Below are positions 9,711 to 62,810 of a stretch of 64,000 nucleotides of DNA, piece after piece (within the stretch, counting starts at the first letter, position 1; each line of letters begins with the position of its first letter). The DNA is from Escherichia phage Delraymugoa, in the sequence record OR896825.1, one strand, 5' to 3'. The translations under genes and the position numbers were made by a program. Under the pieces are notes generated by a model that saw only the letters and a program-made list of their open reading frames with translations, made no database searches and was not told the origin of the DNA.

Positions 9711-9744
9711 AATATATTCCTCACTGTTTTGTCTTGATGGGAGT

Positions 9745-9773
9745 ATCTTACTACTCCCTTAATCCGGTGTCAA
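9745..9773 (-). promoter_or_regulatory. sigma70-type early promoter with stem-loop (PeSL-like)
   Basis: Minus strand TTGACA-N17-TAAGAT; -10 lies in GGGAGTA..TACTCCC hairpin (9738-9757). Confidence 0.6.
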
Positions 9774-9784
9774 CTACTTTTAAA

Positions 9785-10084
9785 TTATTTTCGCCATTCA
9801 CCGGAAACAATAAAGTTTGTAAAGTGATCGTGGTCCATGATAACGTCATTAAGTACCATATGTGGATACACTTTAGTGATAATTTTACTAAGTACCATAT
9901 GCGGATATGCTTTAGTGTAATCACGTTTACGATCAGTCATCCAGCCAACGAAAGTTGGTGCAAAGTACGGTACACCGTCAGACGATGCCATATTAAACCC
10001 TTTATCAACCATAAATGCAGCCGCCCTAAGATTTTTAATTGAAGTAGTGCGACTAATTTCAAAAACTTTATCGGTAAAATTCAT
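9785..10084 (-). CDS. hypothetical protein (99 aa)
   Basis: Start moved to internal ATG (MNFTDKV) with GGGGG Shine-Dalgarno, which removes overlap with upstream gene. Confidence 0.45.
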   Translation of the reverse strand: MNFTDKVFEISRTTSIKNLRAAAFMVDKGFNMASSDGVPYFAPTFVGWMTDRKRDYTKAYPHMVLSKIITKVYPHMVLNDVIMDHDHFTNFIVSGEWRK

Positions 10085-10295: not shown

Positions 10296-10324
10296 GTGAT
10301 TCTCCTTTCGTTTGGTATGGGAGT

Positions 10325-10353
10325 ATGTTACTACTCCCTTATCTTTACGTCAA
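10325..10353 (-). promoter_or_regulatory. sigma70-type early promoter with stem-loop (PeSL-like)
   Basis: TTGACG-N17-TAACAT; GGGAGTA-GTAACA-TACTCCC hairpin over the -10. Confidence 0.6.
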
Positions 10354-10360
10354 CTAGTTT

Positions 10361-10603
10361 TTAGAAATTTTTCGCTTCTTCTTCGGTCATCATCACCGCG
10401 CATTCGTGCATAACTTTGAAAACCGGGTCAATCATATCGAATGCTTCGCTGGACAGTTTACGAGAAGCGATTTTGATTGCTTCAACGTCTTCTACTACAG
10501 GAACAAAAACAGTTTTCAGTTCGTCGAGCACGGCAGCTTCTTTTTCATTCAGGAAGATCCCAGCGTCGTACAGTGCAACTTCGATAACATTAACTTTAAC
10601 CAT
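10361..10603 (-). CDS. hypothetical protein (80 aa)
   Basis: Start set at internal ATG (MVKVNVIEV) with GGAGG Shine-Dalgarno downstream of promoter; track ORF began inside the upstream gene. Confidence 0.45.
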   Translation of the reverse strand: MVKVNVIEVALYDAGIFLNEKEAAVLDELKTVFVPVVEDVEAIKIASRKLSSEAFDMIDPVFKVMHECAVMMTEEEAKNF

Positions 10604-10637
10604 TTTTATTTCCTCCAGTTCGTTTCGGTATGGGAGT

Positions 10638-10666
10638 ATAATACTACCGATGACCTTTGGCGTCAA
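10638..10666 (-). promoter_or_regulatory. sigma70-type early promoter
   Basis: TTGACG-N17-TATTAT with A-rich upstream region. Confidence 0.55.
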
Positions 10667-10868
10667 CTGCTTTTTTATTATTTTCGTGAAAATTTTTCGT
10701 CGCCTCATGTGCTTTTCGCTGGGCTTCTTGTTGTGCTTGCTGGCGTGCTGCCTCTTGTGAAGCCATAACGGAAGCATTTGCAGCAGTTACAGCCGCTACC
10801 ATCGCTGCGGTATTAGCATTTACAGTACATGCACTAGCCAGCAAAGCAATTGCAATCATTTTCTTCAT
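10644..10868 (-). CDS. small secreted or lipoprotein-like protein (74 aa)
   Basis: Signal peptide MKKMIAIALLASAC; Ala/Gln-rich mature part; GGGGA Shine-Dalgarno; ATGA overlap with upstream gene. Confidence 0.5.
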   Translation of the reverse strand: MKKMIAIALLASACTVNANTAAMVAAVTAANASVMASQEAARQQAQQEAQRKAHEATKNFHENNKKAVDAKGHR

Positions 10869-18818: not shown

Positions 18819-20642
18819 TTATGATTGCATCCAAATTTTGCGCTGATCTGCATCTTCACTATAGAGCAAATCGAATAGCTCTTTATAGTTTTCCGGTAAC
18901 GTGATGATCTCCATGACAGGATCGTTGATCACGCGATGATAGTCTGATTCTGTGAGCGATGCTAAACCTTTGATATATCGAATGCTATAACCTTTGATAT
19001 TATCTCGGTCGTTCTCGAAATCTTCTAGGTCATAATACCATCGAACATCATCACCTTTCTTTGGTTCCGCAATGATAATAGGTGTTTTGATAAACCGGAT
19101 TCGTCCATCTTCGAACAATTCAGGCCAACGTGCAAAGAAAGAGATCAGACTAGGTTTAATAGACCCGATCCCGTCAGTATCAGCGTCGGTCATAATCGCA
19201 ATATTTTTGTATTGCATAACTTCCAATGCATCAACACCAAATTGCAAGCCAGTGATCGCCATGATGTTAAAAATTTCGGCGTTCTTAACGATCTTTGCCT
19301 CCGGTTGTTCCCACGTTGTAAGAGTTTTGCCTCGCAACGGGAAACCTCCATGTAAATCTTGATCGCGTACAGAGATCAGATAGTTGATCGCGGAATCACC
19401 TTCCGTCAAAAACAGGGTAGTTTCTGCGTCAGTTCCAATAAGGTTAGCTTTAACGTGTTTTGCCACCTTAGCCCGTTTCGCTGCCTTTGCTGCCTTAGTC
19501 GCTGCCGCTTTATCTGCTGCCTCTTTGCGTGCCAGGACTACAGCAATAATAGGCATGATAATGTTTTCTTTCTTAGCAATGGCTTTAGCCAGCTTTTTAA
19601 AATCAAGATCAATATGACGCTTGATATCACCAGTTGGATTAGTCAATCGTTCTTTTGTCTGTGAATCAAAACGAAGGTTAGGCAATTCACGAACAATAAG
19701 AATACAGGTCAATCCAGACTTAACCGCAGCTTTAGTAACATCAACCTTATATTCTTTCTTGATTCGTTTTACAATCTCTTCACAAAGATCATCTGTCACA
19801 TAATCAACGTGTGTTCCCCCGTTTTTGGTAAACAGACCATTAGCAAAGGATACTGATTTAAAACCTTCTCCCTCGACCGCAGGAACTAGGGCAAGTGAAA
19901 AGTTTTTATCTTCAATGACAAACGGATCATCATTGTATAGTTTAGCATAATCCTTGAACTTACTAACAATACGTTTACCATTAAACTTAAACGTGATCTT
20001 AGGAAAGATTACGCTCAATGATTGCAGACGATCATGAACAATATCTAAAACAGAGTTGTCCATCATATAACCTTCGAAGTGGTCGAAGTCTGGACAAAAT
20101 GTAACCTTCGTTCCCTTCAATTTTGATGGTTTTGATGACCATGTGATATTTTCAGCACCGTTTGTGCACTGTACGGTCATTTCTGTTTCGCCGTCACAGG
20201 TCACACCAGTAAACCAATCGCTAAAGAAATTTGACAACGACGACCCCACACCGTTCATCCCTTGCGTTAATCGATTGGTATCATCAAAGTTAGACCCTGC
20301 TTTTGTTCGTGTCCATGCGGCTACAGGTTGCGGAATCTGCGTGCCCTCTGGGGTAGTAACCATATGTTGAGGAATACCGCGACCATTGTCTGTTACCGTA
20401 ACAATATTGTTTTGGATATCGACGCTAATCACATTGGCAAATTCAAAATTAGTGCGGATCGCCTCGTCTACAGAGTTGTCGATAATCTCATCAATGATTT
20501 TAACCAGCCCAGGAACATATGAAATTTTTGTCCATTTACCGAACAGGAAACGTTGATGTTCTTCGTAAGTTGTTGATCCTATATACATTCCTGCACGCTT
20601 AAGGACATGTTCACGATCAGATAAAATGCGGAACTCACTCAT
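18819..20642 (-). CDS. 39: DNA topoisomerase II large subunit gp39 (GyrB-like ATPase, fused gp39+gp60 form)
   Basis: GHKL/GyrB N-terminal motifs; 607 aa is about T4 gp39+gp60 combined; T4 synteny. Confidence 0.9.
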   Translation of the reverse strand: MSEFRILSDREHVLKRAGMYIGSTTYEEHQRFLFGKWTKISYVPGLVKIIDEIIDNSVDEAIRTNFEFANVISVDIQNNIVTVTDNGRGIPQHMVTTPEGTQIPQPVAAWTRTKAGSNFDDTNRLTQGMNGVGSSLSNFFSDWFTGVTCDGETEMTVQCTNGAENITWSSKPSKLKGTKVTFCPDFDHFEGYMMDNSVLDIVHDRLQSLSVIFPKITFKFNGKRIVSKFKDYAKLYNDDPFVIEDKNFSLALVPAVEGEGFKSVSFANGLFTKNGGTHVDYVTDDLCEEIVKRIKKEYKVDVTKAAVKSGLTCILIVRELPNLRFDSQTKERLTNPTGDIKRHIDLDFKKLAKAIAKKENIIMPIIAVVLARKEAADKAAATKAAKAAKRAKVAKHVKANLIGTDAETTLFLTEGDSAINYLISVRDQDLHGGFPLRGKTLTTWEQPEAKIVKNAEIFNIMAITGLQFGVDALEVMQYKNIAIMTDADTDGIGSIKPSLISFFARWPELFEDGRIRFIKTPIIIAEPKKGDDVRWYYDLEDFENDRDNIKGYSIRYIKGLASLTESDYHRVINDPVMEIITLPENYKELFDLLYSEDADQRKIWMQS

Positions 20643-20704
20643 TATTAAACCTCTTCATAACATAACCATAACTTACTGCAACCGCCACAAAGACGGCTGC
20701 AACA

Positions 20705-20732
20705 ATCATATTAAAAATTGAGTGATTGTCAA
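20705..20732 (-). promoter_or_regulatory. candidate early promoter upstream of gp39
   Basis: TTGACA-N16-TATGAT on minus strand. Confidence 0.35.
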
Positions 20733-20741
20733 GTATATGAC

Positions 20742-20915
20742 TCATGACACGCGCACATTTTTATCATAGTACCCGCCATTAATCCCGCGCGGGGCAGTTA
20801 ATCCCTGTTTGCATTCTTTACCACATTCAGGGCATTCTGCCTTTTCACGTTCGGAAATTTTGCGGATTTTCTGAAATTGACCGTGTTCTTCACAAGAATA
20901 ATCATATAATGGCAT
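20742..20915 (-). CDS. small zinc-ribbon protein (57 aa)
   Basis: Start at ATG (MPLYDYSCEEHG) with GGGGA Shine-Dalgarno; CxxH..CxxC pattern; begins 1 nt after dexA stop. Confidence 0.45.
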   Translation of the reverse strand: MPLYDYSCEEHGQFQKIRKISEREKAECPECGKECKQGLTAPRGINGGYYDKNVRVS

Positions 20916-20916
20916 A

Positions 20917-21585
20917 TTATCCCCTTTGTTTCTTAACTGAATTTGGATCTGGATTTTCTGGTAGGTCTTCCAGACCCATAGCATAACGTTGTGCATAGAT
21001 TAGCATAAGAATATCGCGAGCGCAATCATGAATTGCATCATGTGCGATAAAACCATCTAGCGTACCCATTGGTAACGGACACTCACACATCCCGCGATGC
21101 ATCAATGTACGCTCAATGGCGGTGCGAACATCTCGGATATTCCAGAATCGCACAGGTTCAAGGCTGAACGTCTCTCGTGTATTGTGTGCACGTCGAATCA
21201 TATCAACTAGTAATGGAATATCAAACGCATTACCGCGTGACCACATTACGGATTTAACCGGATCTACCCCTACGGATTCACAGAATGCGTTAAAACGCGC
21301 TAAACCTTCTTTAGTTGATACTTCCGTACCATTTGTGATTAATTGCTTTCTCATGCCTTCTGAGGCGGTATTCTTCCACCATTCAACCACACCATGATCA
21401 AACACCCTTACACCTTTCTGGGAAGGAATATCAAATTTTACCAGAAAGGAATTGTCAACCAGTTCTTTAAATGTAGGTGGATTGTGCGGATCTTCTTTAA
21501 ATCCGATTGCCGCCATATTGATAACCGCCCCATCAGGCGGATAACCTAAACTTTCAAAGTCAATCATTAAATCCACTGGAAGCAT
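20917..21585 (-). CDS. dexA: exonuclease DexA-like (DEDD/DnaQ-type 3'-5' exonuclease)
   Basis: N-terminal MIDFESLG (Exo I D-x-E) motif; about 222 aa as T4 dexA; position between 39 and dda; GGAGGA Shine-Dalgarno. Confidence 0.7.
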   Translation of the reverse strand: MLPVDLMIDFESLGYPPDGAVINMAAIGFKEDPHNPPTFKELVDNSFLVKFDIPSQKGVRVFDHGVVEWWKNTASEGMRKQLITNGTEVSTKEGLARFNAFCESVGVDPVKSVMWSRGNAFDIPLLVDMIRRAHNTRETFSLEPVRFWNIRDVRTAIERTLMHRGMCECPLPMGTLDGFIAHDAIHDCARDILMLIYAQRYAMGLEDLPENPDPNSVKKQRG

Positions 21586-21586
21586 G

Positions 21587-21829
21587 TTAAATATCCTCCG
21601 CGATATGCCGGAACAACTCCAGATCGTTTTTATCCAGAATGAAACCGCTACAATCAATAATCCCGTTACCGTAATTATCGGTTAACAGTCGTTCCGTTGC
21701 CATGTATGCGCGTACTTTGTTGTTAAAATTCATTACATGTTGTGCATAGTCACAATGAATCTTTTGACGGTTCCACGCGACAATTGATTGTAGATGTATT
21801 ACATTAGCCACATTATTAATAACAACCAT
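21587..21829 (-). CDS. hypothetical protein (80 aa)
   Basis: Start at ATG (MVVINNV) with GAGGG Shine-Dalgarno inside a duplicated initiation cassette. Confidence 0.45.
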   Translation of the reverse strand: MVVINNVANVIHLQSIVAWNRQKIHCDYAQHVMNFNNKVRAYMATERLLTDNYGNGIIDCSGFILDKNDLELFRHIAEDI

Positions 21830-21830
21830 A

Positions 21831-22007
21831 TCAAAACCCTCGCTTAGTGGAATGTTCTGGCATTTTATTGATACATTCAGCTTGGTAGTCACGAGATTTT
21901 TTTGACGAATTAAGAGCTACAGCCAAAAAATCCTGTAACTGTTCGTTTGTCATTTTTGGCTTACACCGCGTATCTAAACCCTTCGTTCTTCTAGCTTCAT
22001 TAGCCAT
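21831..22007 (-). CDS. small hypothetical protein (58 aa), paralog of 22009-22176
   Basis: Below the track threshold; ATG with GAGG Shine-Dalgarno; C-terminus ..CINKMPEHSTKRGF matches the neighbour. Confidence 0.4.
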   Translation of the reverse strand: MANEARRTKGLDTRCKPKMTNEQLQDFLAVALNSSKKSRDYQAECINKMPEHSTKRGF

Positions 22008-22008
22008 A

Positions 22009-22176
22009 TCAAAAACCTCGCTTAGTGAAATGCTCGATCATTTTATTGATACATGCAGCTTCACTATCGCCGGACACGTTCCAGCCGTATAGACCCCATC
22101 TAAAGCACATGGTAACAGTTCCATTGTGACGGCTTACCGTCACATCATTAAATTCTGGGATACTTCGCATAATCAT
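22009..22176 (-). CDS. small hypothetical protein (55 aa), paralog of 21831-22007
   Basis: ATG with GAGGAA Shine-Dalgarno just after dda stop; C-terminus ..CINKMIEHFTKRGF. Confidence 0.4.
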   Translation of the reverse strand: MIMRSIPEFNDVTVSRHNGTVTMCFRWGLYGWNVSGDSEAACINKMIEHFTKRGF

Positions 22177-22186
22177 AATAATTTCC

Positions 22187-23578
22187 TCAAATATAGTCTA
22201 CTCGATACCTCGCACGGGTAACACCCACATATAATAACTGCATTGCCAATTCAAAGTCAACATTGTCTGTACACATGCAAGGAGTATACAGGAACACGCG
22301 GTCTACGCTGATCCCTTGTGACTTATGAATGGTGCAAGCTGGTAATGCTTTTACATTCAAGAACATACGCTTCATCGTCCAGAAGGAATCCCAATCTGGT
22401 TTAAATTTTGGATTCTCTTTCTTCATTTCGCGATATTGTCCGGCGACCGTATTCAGATAGATAGAGAAAATGTTCTTCTGACGTTGTTCTGTCAGAATGT
22501 TGATTTCTACTAAATCTGGTTTATCTGTAGTGATTCCGACTGCATCTAAACCGACTTTCTGATTTAGGATTTCTTTGTCTTCGTCATCATCGACGCTTTC
22601 CACTTTCAGAGTATATCCTAAAACTGGTTGCGGATCTACCCCCGTGCAACGTAATGTAAATTCACGCGGGATGACCTCTTTAACTCGGATCATCTCACCA
22701 TTGTTAAAAATAACATTGGGAATCTTCTTCCCGCGTTCATCTCGCAGATATTCGATCAATGGTTCCTGAGTAACCAGAATTTCATCTACAATCACTGGTT
22801 CATCGGTGTTATAAACGCGCTTACGTACAATTTCATTGAGTTTTTCGACGCTCTTGTTAGTGTAGGCCAGAATACGGTTTTCTAGAAGGTCTTCCGGCGT
22901 TTTAACGGTTTCGAAATAATGCTTCATAAACTCCGGCAGAGTTGAGCTATGGAATACACCCTCGTTACCGCACTGCTTTTCGAATACCCATTTACCATTA
23001 CGGACAGCGGTCGCCACATCAATTATTGGAGCATTAGATCGTTTAATCTCTGTAAGTTCTACATTCTGAAACCTTTCATCGGTGAAGAAAGGAGAGATCG
23101 ACGTTGCACCGCTCGGATCAACTGGTCGTAACTGGTTCAGATCACCCACGGCAATAATAACAATTCGACCGTTGATACTCTTCATGAGAATATCAAATAG
23201 TTTCTTATCGACCATACTCGCTTCATCAACAATGATGATCTGAACATCATCTAGCTTAGGAGTATCTTTTTGCTCAAATACTTGAGTATCTTCATAGTTG
23301 GTCGGGTTTAGTCGCAGTAGTGCATGTAAAGTAAATGCTTGACGACCTACCGCTTTACTCAAAACTTTTTTAGCCTGGTGGGTAGGCGTTGCCAAAACCA
23401 CACCAGTTACCCCACGACGGACCATTTCCTGAACAATGAATTTCATCATTGCGGTTTTACCAGTACCCGCCGCACCACGGACAGTTGTATGCTTCTTTTG
23501 TTCAATACGTTTCATTAGAACATCAAAAGCATGTTTTTGCCCGTCTGTTAACATATCGAAAGTTAATACTCTGCTCAT
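22187..23578 (-). CDS. dda: Dda DNA helicase (SF1)
   Basis: GAAGTGKT Walker A, IIVDEASM Walker B, VGVTRAR motif VI; T4 synteny. Confidence 0.9.
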   Translation of the reverse strand: MSRVLTFDMLTDGQKHAFDVLMKRIEQKKHTTVRGAAGTGKTAMMKFIVQEMVRRGVTGVVLATPTHQAKKVLSKAVGRQAFTLHALLRLNPTNYEDTQVFEQKDTPKLDDVQIIIVDEASMVDKKLFDILMKSINGRIVIIAVGDLNQLRPVDPSGATSISPFFTDERFQNVELTEIKRSNAPIIDVATAVRNGKWVFEKQCGNEGVFHSSTLPEFMKHYFETVKTPEDLLENRILAYTNKSVEKLNEIVRKRVYNTDEPVIVDEILVTQEPLIEYLRDERGKKIPNVIFNNGEMIRVKEVIPREFTLRCTGVDPQPVLGYTLKVESVDDDEDKEILNQKVGLDAVGITTDKPDLVEINILTEQRQKNIFSIYLNTVAGQYREMKKENPKFKPDWDSFWTMKRMFLNVKALPACTIHKSQGISVDRVFLYTPCMCTDNVDFELAMQLLYVGVTRARYRVDYI

Positions 23579-23892
23579 TATCCTAAAATCCTCACCTTGC
23601 GAACACAGATAGTATTGAGTTCTCGCCGTACCCGTTCTTTTTCATATTCAGGAATTTTATATTCGATACCATCCCGAACAATTTCAGAAGACCGGATTAT
23701 GCCAAATTTTCGTTTAGGTACAACCTTGTATTTCGGTTCACCCGCCAATAGACTCTCACAATAATCTATCTGATCACACATTGACGCTAACGCAGCATCA
23801 TGTGTTTCGCAAGTTAGGACGCGACCCTTCGCGTCCACTGAGTATTGAAAGAATCCGTCTTTATCACGATAACATACAGCAAATACATGCAT
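23578..23892 (-). CDS. hypothetical protein (104 aa)
   Basis: ORF overlapping dda start by 1 nt. Confidence 0.45.
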   Translation of the reverse strand: MHVFAVCYRDKDGFFQYSVDAKGRVLTCETHDAALASMCDQIDYCESLLAGEPKYKVVPKRKFGIIRSSEIVRDGIEYKIPEYEKERVRRELNTICVRKVRILG

Positions 23893-24647
23893 TATAAACC
23901 TACCTTCGCTTTCATCAATTCAATCCACGACGCATCAATCGGAAGCCCGTATTTCACGCGTTCTTTTTGTGCTGGCGTTAAGTTCTCGTACTTAGAAAGA
24001 GATTCAATCAAAACGCTGGTATATTTTAGCACGATTTCGGTATTGTTTGCAATAGCCTTAAGTTTTTCTTCTTTCTTGTTGATTTCGCTAAGTGCTTGCT
24101 TGAGATCTGCAATTTTCTGATAACGTTCTTCCATACGGAAGAGAGTATTTTTAATCGCTCGCTCGGCTGCCTCTGCTTTCTCCGGTTCGTTGTGCTTTTT
24201 ATGGCGCTCGATTGCTAATTTCTTTTCTTCGATTGCCATTTCCTGATTTTTGATGCGATTCTCGTTAAGTTCGATCCACTCGATGTACTTCGCACGTAGG
24301 GCAATTTCATCATCAGAAAGTTTACCGTTAGTTCCTAGTTCCTGGATCTCTTTAAGAGATTCGATAGTGTGATTGCCACGGAAAGAATTGTATTTCAGTT
24401 TAACCGGAATTACATTGCCATCAACATATCCCAGATTGCAATCAATGCGCTCTAAGGAGAGTCCGTCATCACCTTCACCGAAAGCCTCACCTGAATAGGC
24501 ACAATGAGTCTGACGGTAAATGTTACGAACAGTGACTAAGCTCATAGAGAAGTCTTTGTTGCGACGTGAAGCACCAGCCATGATAGAGTTCAGCCGGAAA
24601 ACAACCAGCGCCAATTCTTCGTTAGATTTAAAAGCAAACAGTTTCAT
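23892..24647 (-). CDS. hypothetical protein with coiled-coil C-terminal half (251 aa)
   Basis: AAGGAG Shine-Dalgarno, own promoter; Cys/His-containing N-domain (HCAYSGE..LSLERID..GYVDGNV) and Lys/Glu-rich helical C-terminus. Confidence 0.5.
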   Translation of the reverse strand: MKLFAFKSNEELALVVFRLNSIMAGASRRNKDFSMSLVTVRNIYRQTHCAYSGEAFGEGDDGLSLERIDCNLGYVDGNVIPVKLKYNSFRGNHTIESLKEIQELGTNGKLSDDEIALRAKYIEWIELNENRIKNQEMAIEEKKLAIERHKKHNEPEKAEAAERAIKNTLFRMEERYQKIADLKQALSEINKKEEKLKAIANNTEIVLKYTSVLIESLSKYENLTPAQKERVKYGLPIDASWIELMKAKVGL

Positions 24648-27785: not shown

Positions 27786-28421
27786 TCAATCGAATGTAGA
27801 AAGCAAATGTTTTGTTTCTTTCAGTTGTCGTTCAAGATTTTTGCGTTTCTCTTTAAGTTGCATTTTAGCATTATTTCGCTCTCTTGTAACCTCTTTATCA
27901 ATACTCTTATTCCAGTTATCAATATCAGAATAAGTTGGCATACCCAATTCTAGACCTAATGCGGTTGGATACAAGGTAACAGTCCATAAACCGCTAATCT
28001 TCTTAAATAGGTCGGGGTGTAGTGTACTACCTACATCTTCCGGTGTCAACTCTTTTTCTTCTTTCAGTGGTGGGATCTCGTCATATGGTTCCAGTGCATT
28101 TACTTTAATATCAGATACCTCATCAAAGAATCCGCGTACATCCGCAGGAAATACACAAGCAATTTCCCAACCGTGATCACGCAGAGAAGTAATATTTTTC
28201 ACTCCCCCACCATGTGTGATGATTGATGTGACATTGCCATCAAGGTCCACCGAATTTACGAGAAATGGCTTATCGTCTGTCAGATCATTATAAAACTGTG
28301 CTTCGGCTGTAGTCATCTCCAGAAACAGATCTCGGATCGGACGACCATCAGGTGCGTTACCTTCCTTGAGAGTATAAAAGCGACTTACGATCCATTTTGG
28401 CGGTAAAGCATTAGCGATCAT
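27786..28421 (-). CDS. hypothetical protein (211 aa)
   Basis: ORF between gp41 and gp61. Confidence 0.5.
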   Translation of the reverse strand: MIANALPPKWIVSRFYTLKEGNAPDGRPIRDLFLEMTTAEAQFYNDLTDDKPFLVNSVDLDGNVTSIITHGGGVKNITSLRDHGWEIACVFPADVRGFFDEVSDIKVNALEPYDEIPPLKEEKELTPEDVGSTLHPDLFKKISGLWTVTLYPTALGLELGMPTYSDIDNWNKSIDKEVTRERNNAKMQLKEKRKNLERQLKETKHLLSTFD

Positions 28422-46009: not shown

Positions 46010-46834
46010 TTACCAACCTCGCTCTTTACCAATCAAAAATTCAACTTCACGACGTTTAATGTCTTCTTGAAGGTCTTTAATCTTCTGGCGATCTTGCATG
46101 ATTTCATCCATCTTGTCAAGTGCCGCAATGAAATCATCGAAACGTTCAAAGGTTTTACCTTCATTTGCTTCGCCAAATTTAACCATTGTCAGGCCGTAAC
46201 GACTACTAAACAGACGTTTCAACTGTCCAACGATTTTAGAATCAGTGGTTATAACTTCCAATTCTTCTACTTCACGAAAGAATTTTCTATCAGAATCAAT
46301 AAACCAGCTAGTTCCTTTATGGTCTCTATCTTCGGTTGCGCTCATTAGAGTATGGTCTTTACCATCAATTTCAATTACATCAATTTGCCCACATGGACGA
46401 ACATTTTTAACAGTAAAAGGTCTATAATTTATTGCTCGTGCAATAACATAATTAAGGTTAGATACGTTTTCAGCATAATGGCAGAAGTCGGTCATAGCAT
46501 TCACATCTTTCCAAGTATAAGTTTTACCAACTTCCCATTTCTGGGGAACTTCTTCAACTTCACGAAAGAATTTTCGATCGAATGGACTAAAGAAATATGT
46601 TGCAGTCCAAATGTCTTTTCCTGTAGCAGTTTTCGCCGTATGATAAACACCGTCTAGCTCTATTGCATTAATCCAACCGTTACCCTCGATCTCGATGATG
46701 GTAAATGGCTTGTCACCAATAGCTGCACTAATATCGCTGTTAAGCGGAGAAAGAACACCTTCTCCGTTAGTAATAAACTCAGTTTTAGCGTTTTCATCTT
46801 TCCAAGTGTAAGTTTTACCAATTTCCCATTTCAT
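46010..46834 (-). CDS. paralog family A member with internal tandem duplication (274 aa)
   Basis: Two copies of WE.GKTYTWKD...IEIDG...DRKFFREVEE within one ORF. Confidence 0.55.
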   Translation of the reverse strand: MKWEIGKTYTWKDENAKTEFITNGEGVLSPLNSDISAAIGDKPFTIIEIEGNGWINAIELDGVYHTAKTATGKDIWTATYFFSPFDRKFFREVEEVPQKWEVGKTYTWKDVNAMTDFCHYAENVSNLNYVIARAINYRPFTVKNVRPCGQIDVIEIDGKDHTLMSATEDRDHKGTSWFIDSDRKFFREVEELEVITTDSKIVGQLKRLFSSRYGLTMVKFGEANEGKTFERFDDFIAALDKMDEIMQDRQKIKDLQEDIKRREVEFLIGKERGW

Positions 46835-46846
46835 AATATATTCCCC

Positions 46847-47311
46847 TTAACCGATTTTATCAAGTTCGTTTAATGCTTTCTCAGCTTCCTGTATAGCTTG
46901 CACTCTTTCCGGCATTTTGTCAAGAAAATCTTTCAACTCTTCAAAACTGGAGATATGACGCAAGGCGTTAGCACCGATAGCCGCATGTGATTTGCATTCA
47001 AAGCGGATTTTATAATTATCCATCGCCAATTTGAGAAGATCAATTAATTTAGATTCTTCTGGAATAATAATTTCTTCAAATCTGCTACGGTCATGATCCA
47101 GAAACCAACAAGATAGACCTACATCGGTTGAACTCATATAAGTTCCATCATGAAGATAAACAGACCGCACGTATCCTTTTTTCGCATCAACCGACGCAAC
47201 TTTAAACGGTAATCGCAGATATTTCAAATAATCAACATCATACCATTTAAAAAATTGGTTTGCATCTTTTACATCTTTCCACGCATAGGTCTTACCAGCT
47301 TCCCATTTCAT
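46847..47311 (-). CDS. paralog family A member (154 aa)
   Basis: MKWEAGKTYAWKDVKDANQF N-terminus; start moved to that ATG. Confidence 0.5.
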   Translation of the reverse strand: MKWEAGKTYAWKDVKDANQFFKWYDVDYLKYLRLPFKVASVDAKKGYVRSVYLHDGTYMSSTDVGLSCWFLDHDRSRFEEIIIPEESKLIDLLKLAMDNYKIRFECKSHAAIGANALRHISSFEELKDFLDKMPERVQAIQEAEKALNELDKIG

Positions 47312-47315
47312 AATA

Positions 47316-47843
47316 TCATCTCTCATTTTTGATACGTGATTCTAATTGGATCATACGGTCGCGCGTTTGTTTGTATTCTCGGATAGCACCGATCCGGCTA
47401 GGCATACCATCCAGTACGCTCTTAATACCTTCTAGGGTAGTAATTTTGGCAATGCTATTATGTAACCCCATCTTATCGATCAACTGAATGTCGTAGGCTT
47501 CCATAAGCAGACCCAGGCGTTCTAAAGTTAGGTCTTCTTCTTTTTCTTCTGAATCTGGAATCTTAGGTTCAATAGTAACTTCGGTAAAGAAACGACGCTC
47601 ACCCGACCAAAACCACACACCAGAACAACCAATAGGGGATTCTTTTAACGTCATAGAGTCGAAATCACTACCAATAATAGTAATTTCTCTAACATCACCA
47701 TCATCGTCAAGGTCTTCTACCCTAAACGGGCGACCAGCCAACAAGTCAACAATACATCTGTTAATAGACGACGAAAATTTAGTCAGTTCGGCTTTCGACG
47801 CTTCGCATTCAATCTTGTAAGTTTTACCAACTTCCCATTCCAT
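47316..47843 (-). CDS. paralog family A member (175 aa)
   Basis: MEWEVGKTYK N-terminus with GAGGTGA Shine-Dalgarno; ..GERRFFTEV motif. Confidence 0.5.
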   Translation of the reverse strand: MEWEVGKTYKIECEASKAELTKFSSSINRCIVDLLAGRPFRVEDLDDDGDVREITIIGSDFDSMTLKESPIGCSGVWFWSGERRFFTEVTIEPKIPDSEEKEEDLTLERLGLLMEAYDIQLIDKMGLHNSIAKITTLEGIKSVLDGMPSRIGAIREYKQTRDRMIQLESRIKNER

Positions 47844-47853
47844 AATAATCACC

Positions 47854-48357
47854 TCAAATAATTTTCACTGGAATACTATTAACAATCTTGTATTGTACTT
47901 GATTGTCAGATCCCCGCCACGGCTTCTTCGTTGGCATATCTTTAATATAACGCCCATCGATGAACATGTCAACTGATTCTACAATTTTTCTTTGCTCATC
48001 ATTCAATTGGTCAAGGGTATAACCGGACCATAGCCAAATATCTTTATTTGGCATCCATGATTTTACTTCATCGATGATCCGCTGTACACCCTTTAAATTG
48101 CGTTTATACAGTGGATCGCCACCTAAGAATGTTAGCCCCTGAATAAAATCAGGTCTAAGCAGGTCCAGAATCAATCCCATTGTATCATCGGTGAATGGTT
48201 CCCCGTTCTTAGGATTGAGTAGGCTAGCATTAAAGCAACCATCACATGCGTGTGAACATCCGGTAACGTAAAGGGAGACTCTCACTCCCTCACCGTTAAC
48301 CATATCACAATCTTTAATATCGGCATAGCGTAGTTTGCCGTATGTATCAGAACTCAT
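47854..48357 (-). CDS. nrdG: anaerobic ribonucleotide reductase activating protein NrdG (radical SAM)
   Basis: CSHACDGC radical-SAM cluster motif; about 167 aa; adjacent to nrdD. Confidence 0.85.
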   Translation of the reverse strand: MSSDTYGKLRYADIKDCDMVNGEGVRVSLYVTGCSHACDGCFNASLLNPKNGEPFTDDTMGLILDLLRPDFIQGLTFLGGDPLYKRNLKGVQRIIDEVKSWMPNKDIWLWSGYTLDQLNDEQRKIVESVDMFIDGRYIKDMPTKKPWRGSDNQVQYKIVNSIPVKII

Positions 48358-48499
48358 ATTCAATTACCCCGAACTCGTTTACAATCTGCGCTTTATAGTA
48401 ACCACCGCGAGATGCTAATAGATAAGCTGGGCTTAGGTATTCGTATTCACGGATTTCTACTTGTGCGTTTTCAGTTTCCCAAATCAGTAAAGTCCACAT
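48347..48499 (-). CDS. small hypothetical protein (50 aa)
   Basis: Start moved to ATG (MWTLLIW) with GGAGAA leader downstream of promoter. Confidence 0.35.
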   Translation of the reverse strand: MWTLLIWETENAQVEIREYEYLSPAYLLASRGGYYKAQIVNEFGVIEYEF

Positions 48500-48541
48500 A
48501 TTTGATTCTCCTGTAAAGTTGTATCTCGTCTTGATGAATAT

Positions 48542-48570
48542 AGTATAGGGGATCTCGCGATCCCCGTCAA
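48542..48570 (-). promoter_or_regulatory. sigma70-type early promoter with GATC-containing palindromic spacer
   Basis: TTGACG-N17-TATACT; spacer GGGGATC-TCGC-GATCCCC carries two GATC sites. Confidence 0.55.
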
Positions 48571-48574
48571 GCAT

Positions 48575-49102
48575 TTATTTTAAATTTTTTCGAATGTATT
48601 CAGACCATTCCTTCCCTGTCATTTCGGACCCGTTCTGGAAACTGAAATATTCATACGGCATCGAGTCAAGATAAAACAGGATCATACATCGCGCCATATA
48701 ATACCAATCACGATTAAAGTAAACTACGTTATCACCAGTACCATCAACCCCTTTATCATAACCATCGCGGGTACGGGCGACCCATTGAATAGTATCATTT
48801 TTCTCGCGGATCGTAACAGGTTCCCAATATCCAGCACATCCAGCATGACCACACGAACAAGTCAGGAAATATTGACCTTTTGCTTTGTTGTCATCCCATT
48901 CACGATGGATTGGTTCGATCTCGTGAAACAGTGCTAAGCAATCATGATTATGCAACACTGGCTTACCATCAATCAATGCATGGAATGTATACAAACGACC
49001 AGTAGACAAATAGCTATCCTCACGCTCAACCAGTTCAATAGCAATCTTTTTAGCTCGTTCTTTGTGTCGTTGTGCTTTACGCTTACGGTTTAATGATTTC
49101 AT
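48575..49102 (-). CDS. hypothetical Cys/His-rich protein (175 aa)
   Basis: Start moved to ATG (MKSLNRKRK) with GAGGTGA Shine-Dalgarno; CSCGHAGCAGY segment. Confidence 0.45.
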   Translation of the reverse strand: MKSLNRKRKAQRHKERAKKIAIELVEREDSYLSTGRLYTFHALIDGKPVLHNHDCLALFHEIEPIHREWDDNKAKGQYFLTCSCGHAGCAGYWEPVTIREKNDTIQWVARTRDGYDKGVDGTGDNVVYFNRDWYYMARCMILFYLDSMPYEYFSFQNGSEMTGKEWSEYIRKNLK

Positions 49103-49694: not shown

Positions 49695-49722
49695 ATTATA
49701 CATTAGCTAATCATGTTGTCAA
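49695..49722 (-). promoter_or_regulatory. sigma70-type early promoter
   Basis: TTGACA-N16-TATAAT immediately downstream of the nrdD terminator. Confidence 0.55.
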
Positions 49723-49726
49723 CACC

Positions 49727-49760
49727 CCAAAACGAAAAAGCCGACCCTTTCGGATCGGCT
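49727..49760 (-). terminator. rho-independent terminator after nrdD
   Basis: AGCCGA-UCCGAAAGGG-UCGGCU followed by UUUUUCGUUUU. Confidence 0.65.
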
Positions 49761-53400: not shown

Positions 53401-53431
53401 AATATAATCCTCTCGTTGTTTAGACGGGAGT

Positions 53432-53460
53432 ATCTTACTACTCCCGTTTCATCATGTCAA
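53432..53460 (-). promoter_or_regulatory. sigma70-type early promoter with stem-loop (PeSL-like)
   Basis: TTGACA-N17-TAAGAT; CGGGAGTA-N6-TACTCCCG hairpin. Confidence 0.6.
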
Positions 53461-54023
53461 GCGTTAAATGACTTTTGGATCTCTTTCAGTTCAGCTACTT
53501 TATCGGCGCTGAATTTAGCGTAGGCATCATGTCGAATAATTTCACTTTCAAGAAAGGTTTCCAGCCGAGATCTATTTTCAATAAGGAACTCTTTCAGGTC
53601 TTCCGCGTTCTTGATAAAGATTTTATTGTCGGTAATGTCATCTTCAATCGCAAAGGAGATAGAGCGAACTTTACCAAACAAGTTAATCAGATCTTCCAGA
53701 GATTCTTCTTTCTTAACTGGTTTCATTTCTTCAAACTGCTTTTTAGTGATGCGTTTAAAGTATTTGCGCTCGTTTGCAGCAATCAGAACAGATGCACCTT
53801 CATACCCATGAGTTTCTACCAGATACACACGCCCCATCGCATCAACAGTGAGAACTTTAAAGCCGTTACAAAGCACGTCATACAAGAACTTATTATGTTG
53901 CGGACATCGCTTGATAAATTCTGCGGCTGTTTCTGCATTACGGAAAGTGTAATAACGACCTCGTTCAAAAACAGCATCATTTGAAGACTTAGCCGGATAC
54001 AATTTATACGTTTTCTGTACCAT
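53457..54023 (-). CDS. paralog family B member (188 aa)
   Basis: GFKVLTVDAMGRV...NERKYFKRITKKQFEEM; start moved to ATG with GAGGA Shine-Dalgarno. Confidence 0.5.
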   Translation of the reverse strand: MVQKTYKLYPAKSSNDAVFERGRYYTFRNAETAAEFIKRCPQHNKFLYDVLCNGFKVLTVDAMGRVYLVETHGYEGASVLIAANERKYFKRITKKQFEEMKPVKKEESLEDLINLFGKVRSISFAIEDDITDNKIFIKNAEDLKEFLIENRSRLETFLESEIIRHDAYAKFSADKVAELKEIQKSFNA

Positions 54024-54310: not shown

Positions 54311-54341
54311 TGTTGATTCTCCTTCTTGATTAGATGGGAGT

Positions 54342-54370
54342 ATTTTACTACTCCCATTTCTTATTGTCAA
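54342..54370 (-). promoter_or_regulatory. sigma70-type early promoter with stem-loop (PeSL-like)
   Basis: TTGACA-N17-TAAAAT; GGGAGTA-N6-TACTCCC hairpin. Confidence 0.6.
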
Positions 54371-54373
54371 CTA

Positions 54374-54847
54374 CTATCTTAATCTTTGTATGAATTGTTT
54401 CTTATACTTCTTCGTGATCTCTTCTCTTGTATCCGCGTCACAGTAATCGAAACCTTCTGCGTCCATAATAGCAACCATCTCCGCTCGTGTCAAGCGTGAA
54501 AATCGTTTTACTTTATCAACAGCATATTGAGGATGTAAATGATTGTTGGTGTAGTCTCCTTTGATGTAATTAACATAGTTTGTAGCCCAAACAACGAAAT
54601 CAGCACCTAAAGCACCAACACCAAACCGTTTAAAGTCTCCGGTCAACGATCCTTCTAGGCGGTTGCAACACGAATGAAGCAATCCCCTTACGCGGCCTTG
54701 CCCTTTCCCATCTAGATCATGATCATGGTCAAGATGGTTTTTGCTCATATCCTCAAAAAGTGGCAATTGACAAAGGGGGCAAATGCCCCCCTGTTTTTCG
54801 AATAGTTCTTGTTTGTACTCTTTAGCACTCTTAGCAGTCAGTAACAT
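54374..54847 (-). CDS. 49: endonuclease VII gp49 (Holliday junction resolvase)
   Basis: NHLDHDH...G..RGLL..CN..EG and C-terminal blocks as T4 endo VII; 157 aa from ATG with GGAGGGTGA Shine-Dalgarno. Confidence 0.9.
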   Translation of the reverse strand: MLLTAKSAKEYKQELFEKQGGICPLCQLPLFEDMSKNHLDHDHDLDGKGQGRVRGLLHSCCNRLEGSLTGDFKRFGVGALGADFVVWATNYVNYIKGDYTNNHLHPQYAVDKVKRFSRLTRAEMVAIMDAEGFDYCDADTREEITKKYKKQFIQRLR

Positions 54848-58199: not shown

Positions 58200-58241
58200 T
58201 TTGATTCTCCTTAAGAAAGTGTGTTTCGTTTTGATGTGTGT

Positions 58242-58270
58242 AGTATAGGGGATCACCGATCCCCTGTCAA
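58242..58270 (-). promoter_or_regulatory. sigma70-type early promoter with GATC-containing palindromic spacer
   Basis: TTGACA-N17-TATACT; spacer GGGGATC-ACC-GATCCCC. Confidence 0.55.
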
Positions 58271-58279
58271 CAACTTTTT

Positions 58280-58543
58280 TTATGATTTTAGTGAATTAAC
58301 TACTACATCAAAATGATGTACAGAGTACACCTTATTAAACACATACTCATCGTGTTTAGGAATAGCCCCTAATCGCTCTATTTCGCTCGCTAACACGATA
58401 AACTGTTTATCCGGTGCATTTACCTTATATGCTTCAACAACGCACGGAAAACGCGTTTTAGCGAGTTCGGGATAGTTTTCTGACTCCATCAGGACAATGA
58501 ATACTCTGTTACATTGATTGTAGAATCCTGTTTTTGATTTCAT
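58280..58543 (-). CDS. hypothetical protein (about 87 aa; start uncertain)
   Basis: ORF overlapping the upstream gene; start placed at internal ATG. Confidence 0.35.
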   Translation of the reverse strand: MKSKTGFYNQCNRVFIVLMESENYPELAKTRFPCVVEAYKVNAPDKQFIVLASEIERLGAIPKHDEYVFNKVYSVHHFDVVVNSLKS

Positions 58544-60318: not shown

Positions 60319-60346
60319 ATTATAGCATTGTGATTATCTTTGTCAA
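60319..60346 (-). promoter_or_regulatory. sigma70-type early promoter
   Basis: TTGACA-N16-TATAAT immediately after terminator. Confidence 0.55.
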
Positions 60347-60350
60347 CACA

Positions 60351-60383
60351 CAAAAACAAAAAAGGCTACCCCGAAGGATAGCC
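60351..60383 (-). terminator. rho-independent terminator after gp38-like gene
   Basis: GGCUAUCC-UUCG-GGGUAGCC with UUCG tetraloop, followed by UUUUUUGUUUUUG. Confidence 0.65.
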
Positions 60384-61452: not shown

Positions 61453-61493
61453 TTTTGATTCTCCTAGAAAGTGTATCTCGTTTCGATGTGTGT

Positions 61494-61522
61494 ATTATGC
61501 AATAACACCGGATCGCTGTCAA
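61494..61522 (-). promoter_or_regulatory. sigma70-type early promoter
   Basis: TTGACA-N17-CATAAT with conserved leader. Confidence 0.55.
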
Positions 61523-61541
61523 CACTTTCTAAGAAAAATTT

Positions 61542-62737: not shown

Positions 62738-62766
62738 ATTATGCTATACCCTATTCCGGTTGTCAA
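62738..62766 (-). promoter_or_regulatory. sigma70-type early promoter
   Basis: TTGACA-N17-CATAAT. Confidence 0.55.
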
Positions 62767-62771
62767 CACCT

Positions 62772-62810
62772 AAAAACGAAAAAGCCACCCTTTCGGATGG
62801 CTTTTGATTA
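62772..62810. terminator. bidirectional rho-independent terminator
   Basis: GCCACCC-TTTC-GGATGGC hairpin with T-runs on both sides; same family as the 49727-49760 element. Confidence 0.55.

Follow-up and report, generated by a model that had tools for sequence, protein, structure and literature searches.

In the 64,000-nt stretch of DNA analysed here (the window; Escherichia phage Delraymugoa, sequence record OR896825.1), three small genes between dda and dexA are joined by two almost identical gene junctions. The locus raises the question of how the end of one gene and the start of the next came to be present twice, and what kind of gene stands between the two copies. A sequence-only reading had proposed that the arrangement arose by duplication of a gene-boundary module, giving two small paralogous ORFs in a translationally coupled series.

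Gene content of the dda-dexA locus

An 801-nt locus query (21500-22300, minus strand) was compared with phage records and matched 57 of them, all belonging to Krischvirus (RB49-like T4-type coliphages), with vB_EcoM_G37-3 and FL38 as the best matches (99.9%). The phage represented by the window is a Krischvirus. The gene order on the minus strand is dda, a 55-aa ORF, a 58-aa ORF, an 80-aa ORF, dexA, a zinc-ribbon gene and the gp39 topoisomerase subunit. The upstream neighbour of the small ORFs is the dda helicase gene (22187-23578, minus strand), and the downstream neighbour is the gene for exonuclease A, dexA (20917-21585, minus strand). The first small ORF is the homologue of RB49 ORF010c and Phi1 ORF010 (22009-22176, minus strand; phrog_16162), the second is the homologue of Phi1 ORFan009.1 (21831-22007, minus strand; phrog_37371), and the third is the homologue of RB49 ORF009c (21587-21829, minus strand; phrog_15021), whose end leads into the TAA-C-ATG of dexA. 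They are called here ORF010, ORF009.1 and ORF009. All three are hypothetical proteins in the GenBank relatives and belong to PHROG families without an assigned function, and a Pfam search returned no match for any of them, nor any within the repeat described below. Farther along the same strand, the gp39 topoisomerase subunit is encoded by a single 607-aa ORF (18819-20642, minus strand) with no split seen; in T4 this subunit is split into gene 39 and gene 60.

A duplicated gene junction

A repeat search identified a direct repeat of 58 nt (21826-21883 and 22004-22061) with 51/58 identical positions (88%) and a start-to-start spacing of 178 nt, which is the most similar among the direct repeats of at least 30 nt in the 64-kb window. 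A degenerate 38-nt core of this repeat has two exact matches in the window and none in 100 dinucleotide-preserving shuffles. The near-identical segments reported earlier are thereby borne out, with coordinates that agree to within 1 nt and a similarity far above that of shuffled sequences. An assembly artefact is excluded, as 16 independent phage records share the duplicated arrangement.

Minus-strand reading also bears out the composition previously ascribed to each copy, namely a C-terminal coding segment followed by a stop codon, with the Shine-Dalgarno sequence (SD) and ATG of the next gene. Copy A (22004-22061, minus strand) contains the last 17 codons of ORF010 (..EAACINKMIEHFTKRGF), the SD GAGG at 22019-22016, the stop TGA at 22011-22009 and the ORF009.1 start ATGG at 22007-22004. 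Copy B (21826-21883, minus strand) contains the last 17 codons of ORF009.1 (..AECINKMPEHSTKRGF), the SD GAGG at 21841-21838, the stop TGA at 21833-21831 and the ATGG at 21829-21826, so that ORF009 takes its SD and ATG from copy B. Both copies encode ..A.CINKM.EH.TKRGF-stop, with GAGG 8 nt before the next ATG. The small genes and dexA form a stop-N-ATG chain (TGA-T-ATG twice, then TAA-C-ATG before dexA) in which GAGG or GGAGG lies 8-9 nt 5' of each ATG, the SD is located inside the upstream ORF, and stop and start are a few nt apart. This geometry is consistent with translational coupling of the chain.

The relationship between ORF010 and ORF009.1 is confined to these ends. Their local alignment has a score of 39, compared with 8.9 +/- 1.4 for shuffled sequences (0/200 reach 39), and spans only the last 53 nt of each gene. 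The N-terminal 115 nt of ORF010 and 124 nt of ORF009.1 have no similarity (147/1000 shuffles score equally), and the PHROG cross-hits between the two proteins cover only residues 35-55 and 38-58. The two ORFs had been described as paralogues, a description that does not hold for them as wholes: the similarity comprises the last 17 codons, and it does not extend along most of both genes as in a whole-gene tandem pair.

The ORF010 family was found only in Krischvirus, as 3 clusters among 5.8 billion proteins. Its AlphaFold model (pLDDT 76.6) has three beta-strands and a C-terminal helix at residues 39-53; this helix falls within the cassette-coded part of the protein, so the cassette encodes the predicted ORF010 helix. 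A Foldseek comparison of the model with the PDB gave no significant match (best E 0.19); the weak matches are to dsRBD/HicB-like beta3-alpha folds, from which we draw no functional claim. The AlphaFold model of ORF009.1 is of low confidence (pLDDT 61.8).

ORF009.1 is a chimeric gene

The body of ORF009.1 has its relatives in another phage family, that of the N4-like podoviruses. A tblastn search with ORF009.1 returned a weak match to a small gene of the N4-like Gamaleyavirus 'nithesis', with a pairwise BLASTP E of 5e-10, and the nucleotide alignment with the Gamaleyavirus gp6-like gene has a score of 28 against 9.5 +/- 1.4 for shuffled sequences. The 'nithesis' gene belongs to the N4 gp6 family, which is represented in 112 phage records, all of Schitoviridae except for the Krischvirus ORF009.1 records. 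Members of this family have invariant ends and a variable middle, which in one subfamily reads ..KRRAKQ..R.KPVMTNEQLQEFIDAGLKQSK... The region homologous to ORF009.1 corresponds to gap-rich columns of the full gp6 alignment, and a gp6 HMM was built from the MTNEQLQ subfamily. ORF009.1 obtains about 30-37 bits with this HMM, against a top score of 9.5 bits among 2000 shuffles and about 1000 window ORFs, and aligns to HMM positions 16-47 of 58; the frameshifted allele of the Makalu phages reaches position 57 weakly. ORF009.1 residues 6-37 align with the central ..RR.K...R.KP.MTNEQLQ.F....SK of the subfamily, whereas the two end blocks of the gp6 family, the invariant N-terminal MRKSLIMGTKEDV and the C-terminal RIVTFNHP, are absent from ORF009.1 in the window's frame. 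The genomic setting also differs, as ORF009.1 is located in a myovirus replication-gene cluster and not in an N4 early region.

A closer relative was found by a whole-library HMM search with the ORF009.1 profile (E 5e-6). This 49-aa protein, P0133, is encoded on 75-kb uncultured contigs, where its gene adjoins the Phage_N4_Gp1 and Gp2 genes. In BLASTP it shares 23/36 identities (64%) with ORF009.1 (residues 1-34 vs 1-36) and is colinear with it from Met1, and the divergent Krischvirus allele P0132 shares 25/44 identities (57%) with P0133 (1-44 vs 1-41). A reverse tblastn search with P0133 in 50,697 phage records matched only the 16 ORF009.1 records. Codons 1-42 of ORF009.1 (21882-22007, minus strand) are the part homologous to P0133 and to the MTNEQLQ centre of the gp6 family, and the own C-terminus of P0133 (..LGDNTISK) is replaced by the ORF010 tail. 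ORF009.1 is thus shown to be a chimeric ORFan that consists of a body related to an N4-like gene (codons 1-42) and the tail of ORF010.

The N4-like relatives of ORF009.1 have only about 63-65% nucleotide identity to it, which means that the actual donor is unsampled and that the transfer direction rests on parsimony. A transfer from N4-like phages to Krischvirus is the more parsimonious direction, with a family that is broad in the former and narrow in the latter. On one uncultured N4-like contig (L034, JGI 3300007106), the P0133 gene (2501-2650) lies directly upstream of the N4 gp1 homologue and in the opposite orientation. This site differs from the gp6 position that holds MTNEQL in other N4-like phages, so the motif is apparently mobile within Schitoviridae.

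Joints and proposed origin of the locus

Comparison of the three genes at the 3' joint (ORF010, ..AGT GAA GCT GCA TGT ATC..; ORF009.1, ..GAC TAC CAA GCT GAA TGT ATC..; P0133, ..CTT TAC CAA CTA GGG GAT..) reveals that ORF009.1 tracks P0133 through TAC CAA and ORF010 from (A)A GCT G. The N4-like part thus ends in TAC CAA, the AA of which overlaps the first bases of copy B. On the 5' side, ORF009.1 tracks the cassette through GATATGG and P0133 from about codon 3. The duplicated interval extends exactly from ORF010 codon 38/39 to the ATGG of ORF009 and brackets the insert (start codon to codon 42). The microhomologies at the two joints, TATG and AA (2-4 nt), are read against a distant relative and are at most indicative.

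The best explanation of these observations, and in our view a likely one, is the insertion of an N4-like gene piece with a staggered junction duplication, followed by repeat-mediated gain, loss and conversion. The ancestral Krischvirus locus would have had the order dda-ORF010-ORF009-dexA, as in the divergent outgroup clade described below. During a mixed infection, an N4-like gene piece (start codon to codon 42) would have entered it through two illegitimate events, either crossovers or template switches, located at the ORF009 start (TATG) and, on a second genome copy, at ORF010 codon 38/39 (AA). A stagger of 58 bp between these joints would leave the intervening interval duplicated on both flanks of the insert. 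The geometry would make such an insertion tolerable: ORF010 would stay intact, the newcomer would gain an SD, an in-frame tail and a stop, and ORF009 would retain its own SD and ATG, leaving the stop-N-ATG chain unbroken to dexA. Since then the 58-bp copies have served as homology arms for the very active recombination system of the phage. The earlier proposal that the locus was built by duplicating a boundary module stands as to the duplication itself and falls as to a simple module duplication, given the foreign N4-like gene piece inserted between the copies.

A whole-gene tandem duplication of ORF010 (a unit of ~178 nt), with the N-terminal two thirds of the second copy diverged or overwritten, would account for the nearly equal lengths and layout of ORF010 and ORF009.1 (55 and 58 aa) and for a 178-nt period close to that of a gene plus a spacer. 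However, tails that are 88% identical beside N-terminal parts that are shuffle-like exclude uniform divergence, and the N-terminal part of ORF009.1 is homologous to P0133 from the first codon. A version in which the second copy was overwritten later still requires both illegitimate joints and adds a duplication step to them. We consider this alternative unlikely and retain the staggered insertion as the preferred reading.

Two other placements of the joints were considered. A 3' joint placed where a 10-nt stretch (CATGTATCAA) matches the 3' end of the Gamaleyavirus gp6-like gene was dropped, since the closer P0133 homology runs to TAC CAA. A duplication that at first included 24 nt of ORF009 and was later shortened by 18 nt through a deletion between GATATGG repeats was downgraded because the M-A-N start of ORF009.1 is colinear with the M-M-N start of P0133. 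A 12-nt match (ATGTGGCTAATG / ATATGGCTAATG; ATGGCTAATG..) between the ORF009.1 start (21998-22009) and ORF009 codons 6-10 (21802-21813), which is 14/14 in Phi1, lies outside the insertion model and may be due to chance, to a conversion tract or to the remnant of a duplication that was once longer. Nothing specific on microhomology as a source of chimeric ORFans in T4-like phages emerged from a literature search.

Distribution and recombination of the 178-bp unit in Krischvirus

The 57 Krischvirus records fall into 16 with three small genes, 34 that are shorter by exactly 178 bp (span of 623 vs 801) and seven divergent records with two genes. In RB49, ORF010c directly precedes ORF009c, whereas in Phi1 ORF009.1 lies between the two genes. 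The alignment of RB49-type and three-gene loci contains a clean 178-nt gap that ends within the repeat. RB49, JSE and a further 32 records lack this unit, which consists of the unique part plus one cassette copy (21826-22003, minus strand, in one of its equivalent placements; cargo ORF009.1). The copy-number variation that had been suggested as a check in related genomes is therefore found, in 34/57 records as the loss or absence of one unit, and makes the label of modular shuffling a fair one. Scans for the cassette motif in IMG/VR and metagenome contigs recovered only Krischvirus dda-dexA loci, with no other cargo and no other locus. The divergent clade (GoldenSnicker, KFS-EC, AV108 and others; n=7) has a two-gene locus in which the cassette differs at 11/50 positions, and this distribution makes two genes the likely ancestral state.

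Haplotype comparison in an alignment of 26 loci distinguished two ORF010 haplotypes, about 10% apart, each of which occurs with and without the ORF009.1 unit. JSE has no differences from the window in the flanks (0/114 and 0/213), yet the unit is missing; the same presence/absence contrast separates kvi and PTE-Eco09 from RB49, with flank differences of 2/114 and 0/213. The single cassette of the two-gene phage PHB13 has the sequence of 011D4 copy B, down to a rare extra A, which identifies PHB13 as a repeat-mediated deletion derivative, with a crossover within the first few bases of the repeat. Two-gene phages can reflect either ancestral absence or secondary deletion, PHB13 being the sole unambiguous deletion. 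In PHB13 (L027, 425-580), the deletion joined ORF010 to the frameshifted copy B, giving a 51-aa product that ends in ..CINKNARTFH before the stop. Provided that the extra A is not a sequencing error, this suggests that the phage can do without the C-terminal helix of ORF010 or without the entire gene. In the Makalu phages, copies A and B differ at only 2/62 positions, and copy B has evidently been converted to the copy-A sequence. Judged from these alignments, the repeats are shown to be substrates for homologous gain, loss and conversion.

Selection and frameshifts

Synonymous diversity of ORF009.1 (pS 0.045) is fourfold below that of the flanking genes (0.18-0.19), which points to a young module that spread over older backgrounds. 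The pN/pS ratio is 0.24 in ORF010, 0.13 in the ORF010 tail and 0.17 in ORF009; in ORF009.1, where substitutions are few and only 5 unique intact alleles are available, the N4-like part has a ratio of 0.36 and the borrowed tail one of 0.87. The tail reads MIEHF in ORF010 and MPEHS, MTEHF or MSEHS in ORF009.1. It seems that selection keeps the SD/stop/ATG half of copy B and that the N4-like body may matter, while the borrowed tail does not.

Similarity of the two copies might also be held by function, as a regulatory RNA, a coupling element or a protein motif that both small proteins require. In all copies and all phages, the 3' half of the cassette (CACTAAGCGAGGKTTTTGATATGG; SD, stop, ATG) is essentially invariant, and the ORF010 tail is under purifying selection and forms the predicted helix of a beta-beta-beta-alpha fold. 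RNA folding, however, placed neither copy above shuffles (58-nt cassettes, -6.0 and -6.3 kcal/mol, z +0.9 each; 91-nt stretches around the copies, z +0.56 and -1.54) and gave no structure common to both, and an Rfam search had no match within the repeat or the small ORFs. The ORF009.1 tail is near neutral (I to P/T/S, F to S) and is frameshifted away in several phages, and constraint alone leaves the exact 178-bp indel bounded by the repeat unexplained. Functional constraint is accordingly quite improbable as the cause of the similarity, and we continue with the staggered insertion.

Frame-disrupted alleles of ORF009.1 are present in pEJ01 (T6 to T5), ECD7 (A7 to A8), the Makalu phages (A7 to A6), 011D4 (A4 to A5) and the metagenomic contig L037 (A4 to A3). 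All except that of pEJ01 (4/5) retain residues 1-36 and lose the tail alone. Some of these homopolymer-sited frameshifts could be sequencing errors. The A7 homopolymer of the window is located at 21897-21903 (minus strand), the same tract that is A6 in the Makalu phages and A8 in ECD7. In the window, a tract of A6 would give an in-frame fusion of ORF009.1 residues 1-36 with the complete ORF009 (139 aa), whereas with A8 the product would be 39 aa long. The corresponding alternative-frame ORF of 101 aa (21587-21892, minus strand) runs in the +1 frame through copy B; this frame is open because copy B reads ATGCCA and not ATGATC, and so is without TGA.

Comparison with known mechanisms of phage mosaicism

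Modular shuffling mediated by promoter-early stem-loop (PeSL) cassettes has been described for T4-type phages (Arbiol et al. 2010, PMC2839356; Comeau et al. 2014, PMC4122927). The first of these studies listed ORFan009.1 as unique to Phi1 and outside the hyperplastic regions; its text gives no flanking repeat and no chimeric origin for it. The ORF009.1 locus resembles PeSL shuffling in several respects. It belongs to the same RB49/Phi1 group, direct repeats bracket one ORFan that is present in one phage only, an SD and a start codon stand at the end of the repeat, and gain and loss proceed by homologous recombination between repeats. The junction repeat itself is of another nature, being without a promoter or stem-loop and mostly coding, with the last 17 codons of the upstream gene. 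PeSLs occur in about 50 dispersed copies, mostly intergenic and in hyperplastic regions, and bring their own near-consensus sigma-70 promoter and a stable G/C-rich stem-loop that acts as terminator or attenuator, whereas the junction repeat has two copies at one locus and ORF009.1, if expressed at all, joins an existing stop-N-ATG chain.

That the junction repeat is itself a mobile PeSL, as described for RB49 and Phi1, might be argued from the ORFan it flanks, which differs between these two phages, and from its SD and start codon (PMC2839356), and is effectively refuted: a scan of 20500-24500 found no sigma-70-like promoter, terminator-like site or hairpin in either copy (minus strand) or in the small ORFs, stable stem-loops are lacking in both, the repeat is coding and limited to two copies at the dda-dexA locus in the window and in public collections instead of many dispersed ones, and the genuine PeSL-like repeats of the window look different (GTTGAC plus a GGGAGTA..TACTCCC hairpin).

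The preferred insertion model also has features in common with the accretion of single genes. Moron accretion and boundary-sequence mosaicism were reportedly described in lambdoid phages by Hendrix et al. and Juhala et al. in 2000, and both are taken up in the discussion of PMC2839356. As with morons, one foreign gene stands precisely between two resident genes with joints at gene boundaries, and the origin by illegitimate recombination is filtered by selection for non-disruptive products. Morons, however, are whole genes with their own promoter and terminator, whereas ORF009.1 is a fragment that borrows its tail, stop and translation signals from a duplicated junction.

The loss of the unit has a parallel in deletions between short direct repeats, which are said to be known from T4 rII deletion studies. 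Deletion and duplication between such repeats were reported by Albertini et al. 1982, as cited in PMC4122927. In both cases one repeat copy and the intervening DNA are lost precisely, and crossover points are scattered in the repeat (PHB13 vs JSE). The difference is one of length: a repeat of 58 bp suffices for genomes to undergo regular homologous exchange, and the outcome is population-level presence/absence and gene conversion instead of rare mutational deletions.

Other repeats in the window

The window also contains dispersed repeat families of 40-70 nt in which a TTGAC(A)-type hexamer (plus strand, GTCAAC) is accompanied by a hairpin of the form GGGAGTA..TACTCCC or GGGGATC..GATCCCC. Six 43-nt repeats are located at 9739-9781, 10319-10361, 10632-10674, 28015-28057, 53426-53468 and 54336-54378, and further dispersed repeats are found at 48520-48589, 58220-58289 and 61472-61541, as well as at 49707-49749, 60331-60373 and 62751-62793. 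By their composition, these families look like the PeSL promoter-stem-loop cassettes of RB49 and Phi1. Beside PeSL-like repeats, 9838-9915 contains two tandem copies of a 39-nt unit (82% identical). A separate cluster of three adjacent genes (274, 159 and 178 aa; 46010-47852, minus strand), which adjoins an nrdG-like gene (47854-48363), contains four copies of a paralogous module with a KWE.GKTYTWKD start and a DRKFFREVEE end, two of them within one gene. As far as can be told from its sequence, this cluster is a local domain or gene amplification.

Conclusions

The ORF009.1 locus is a variant of the modular shuffling known for the RB49/Phi1 group, in which a coding gene junction replaces the promoter-terminator cassette. 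We regard it as a clear and instructive case that is neither a surprise nor a new kind of system, and it accounts for one of the few differences between Phi1 and RB49 outside the PeSL model. The practical effect is small: annotation pipelines should expect the 178-bp polymorphism and homopolymer frameshifts in Krischvirus therapy phages.

A broader reading, in which junction duplication is a general PeSL-independent route of gene capture and the A7 tract a slippage switch, is speculative and in our opinion rather doubtful. If it were true, T4-like phages would capture gene pieces from unrelated co-infecting phages (here from Schitoviridae into Straboviridae), and these pieces would land ready for translation in conserved replication-gene operons. 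Slippage at A7 would then produce the 58-aa protein, a truncated form of 39-48 aa and a 139-aa ORF009.1-ORF009 fusion.

At its own scale, the locus illustrates how a 58-bp boundary duplication can supply a gene fragment with translation signals and a stop and leave the homology arms by which it is later moved or removed. It thereby offers a single-nucleotide view of how a phage ORFan may arise and then circulate.
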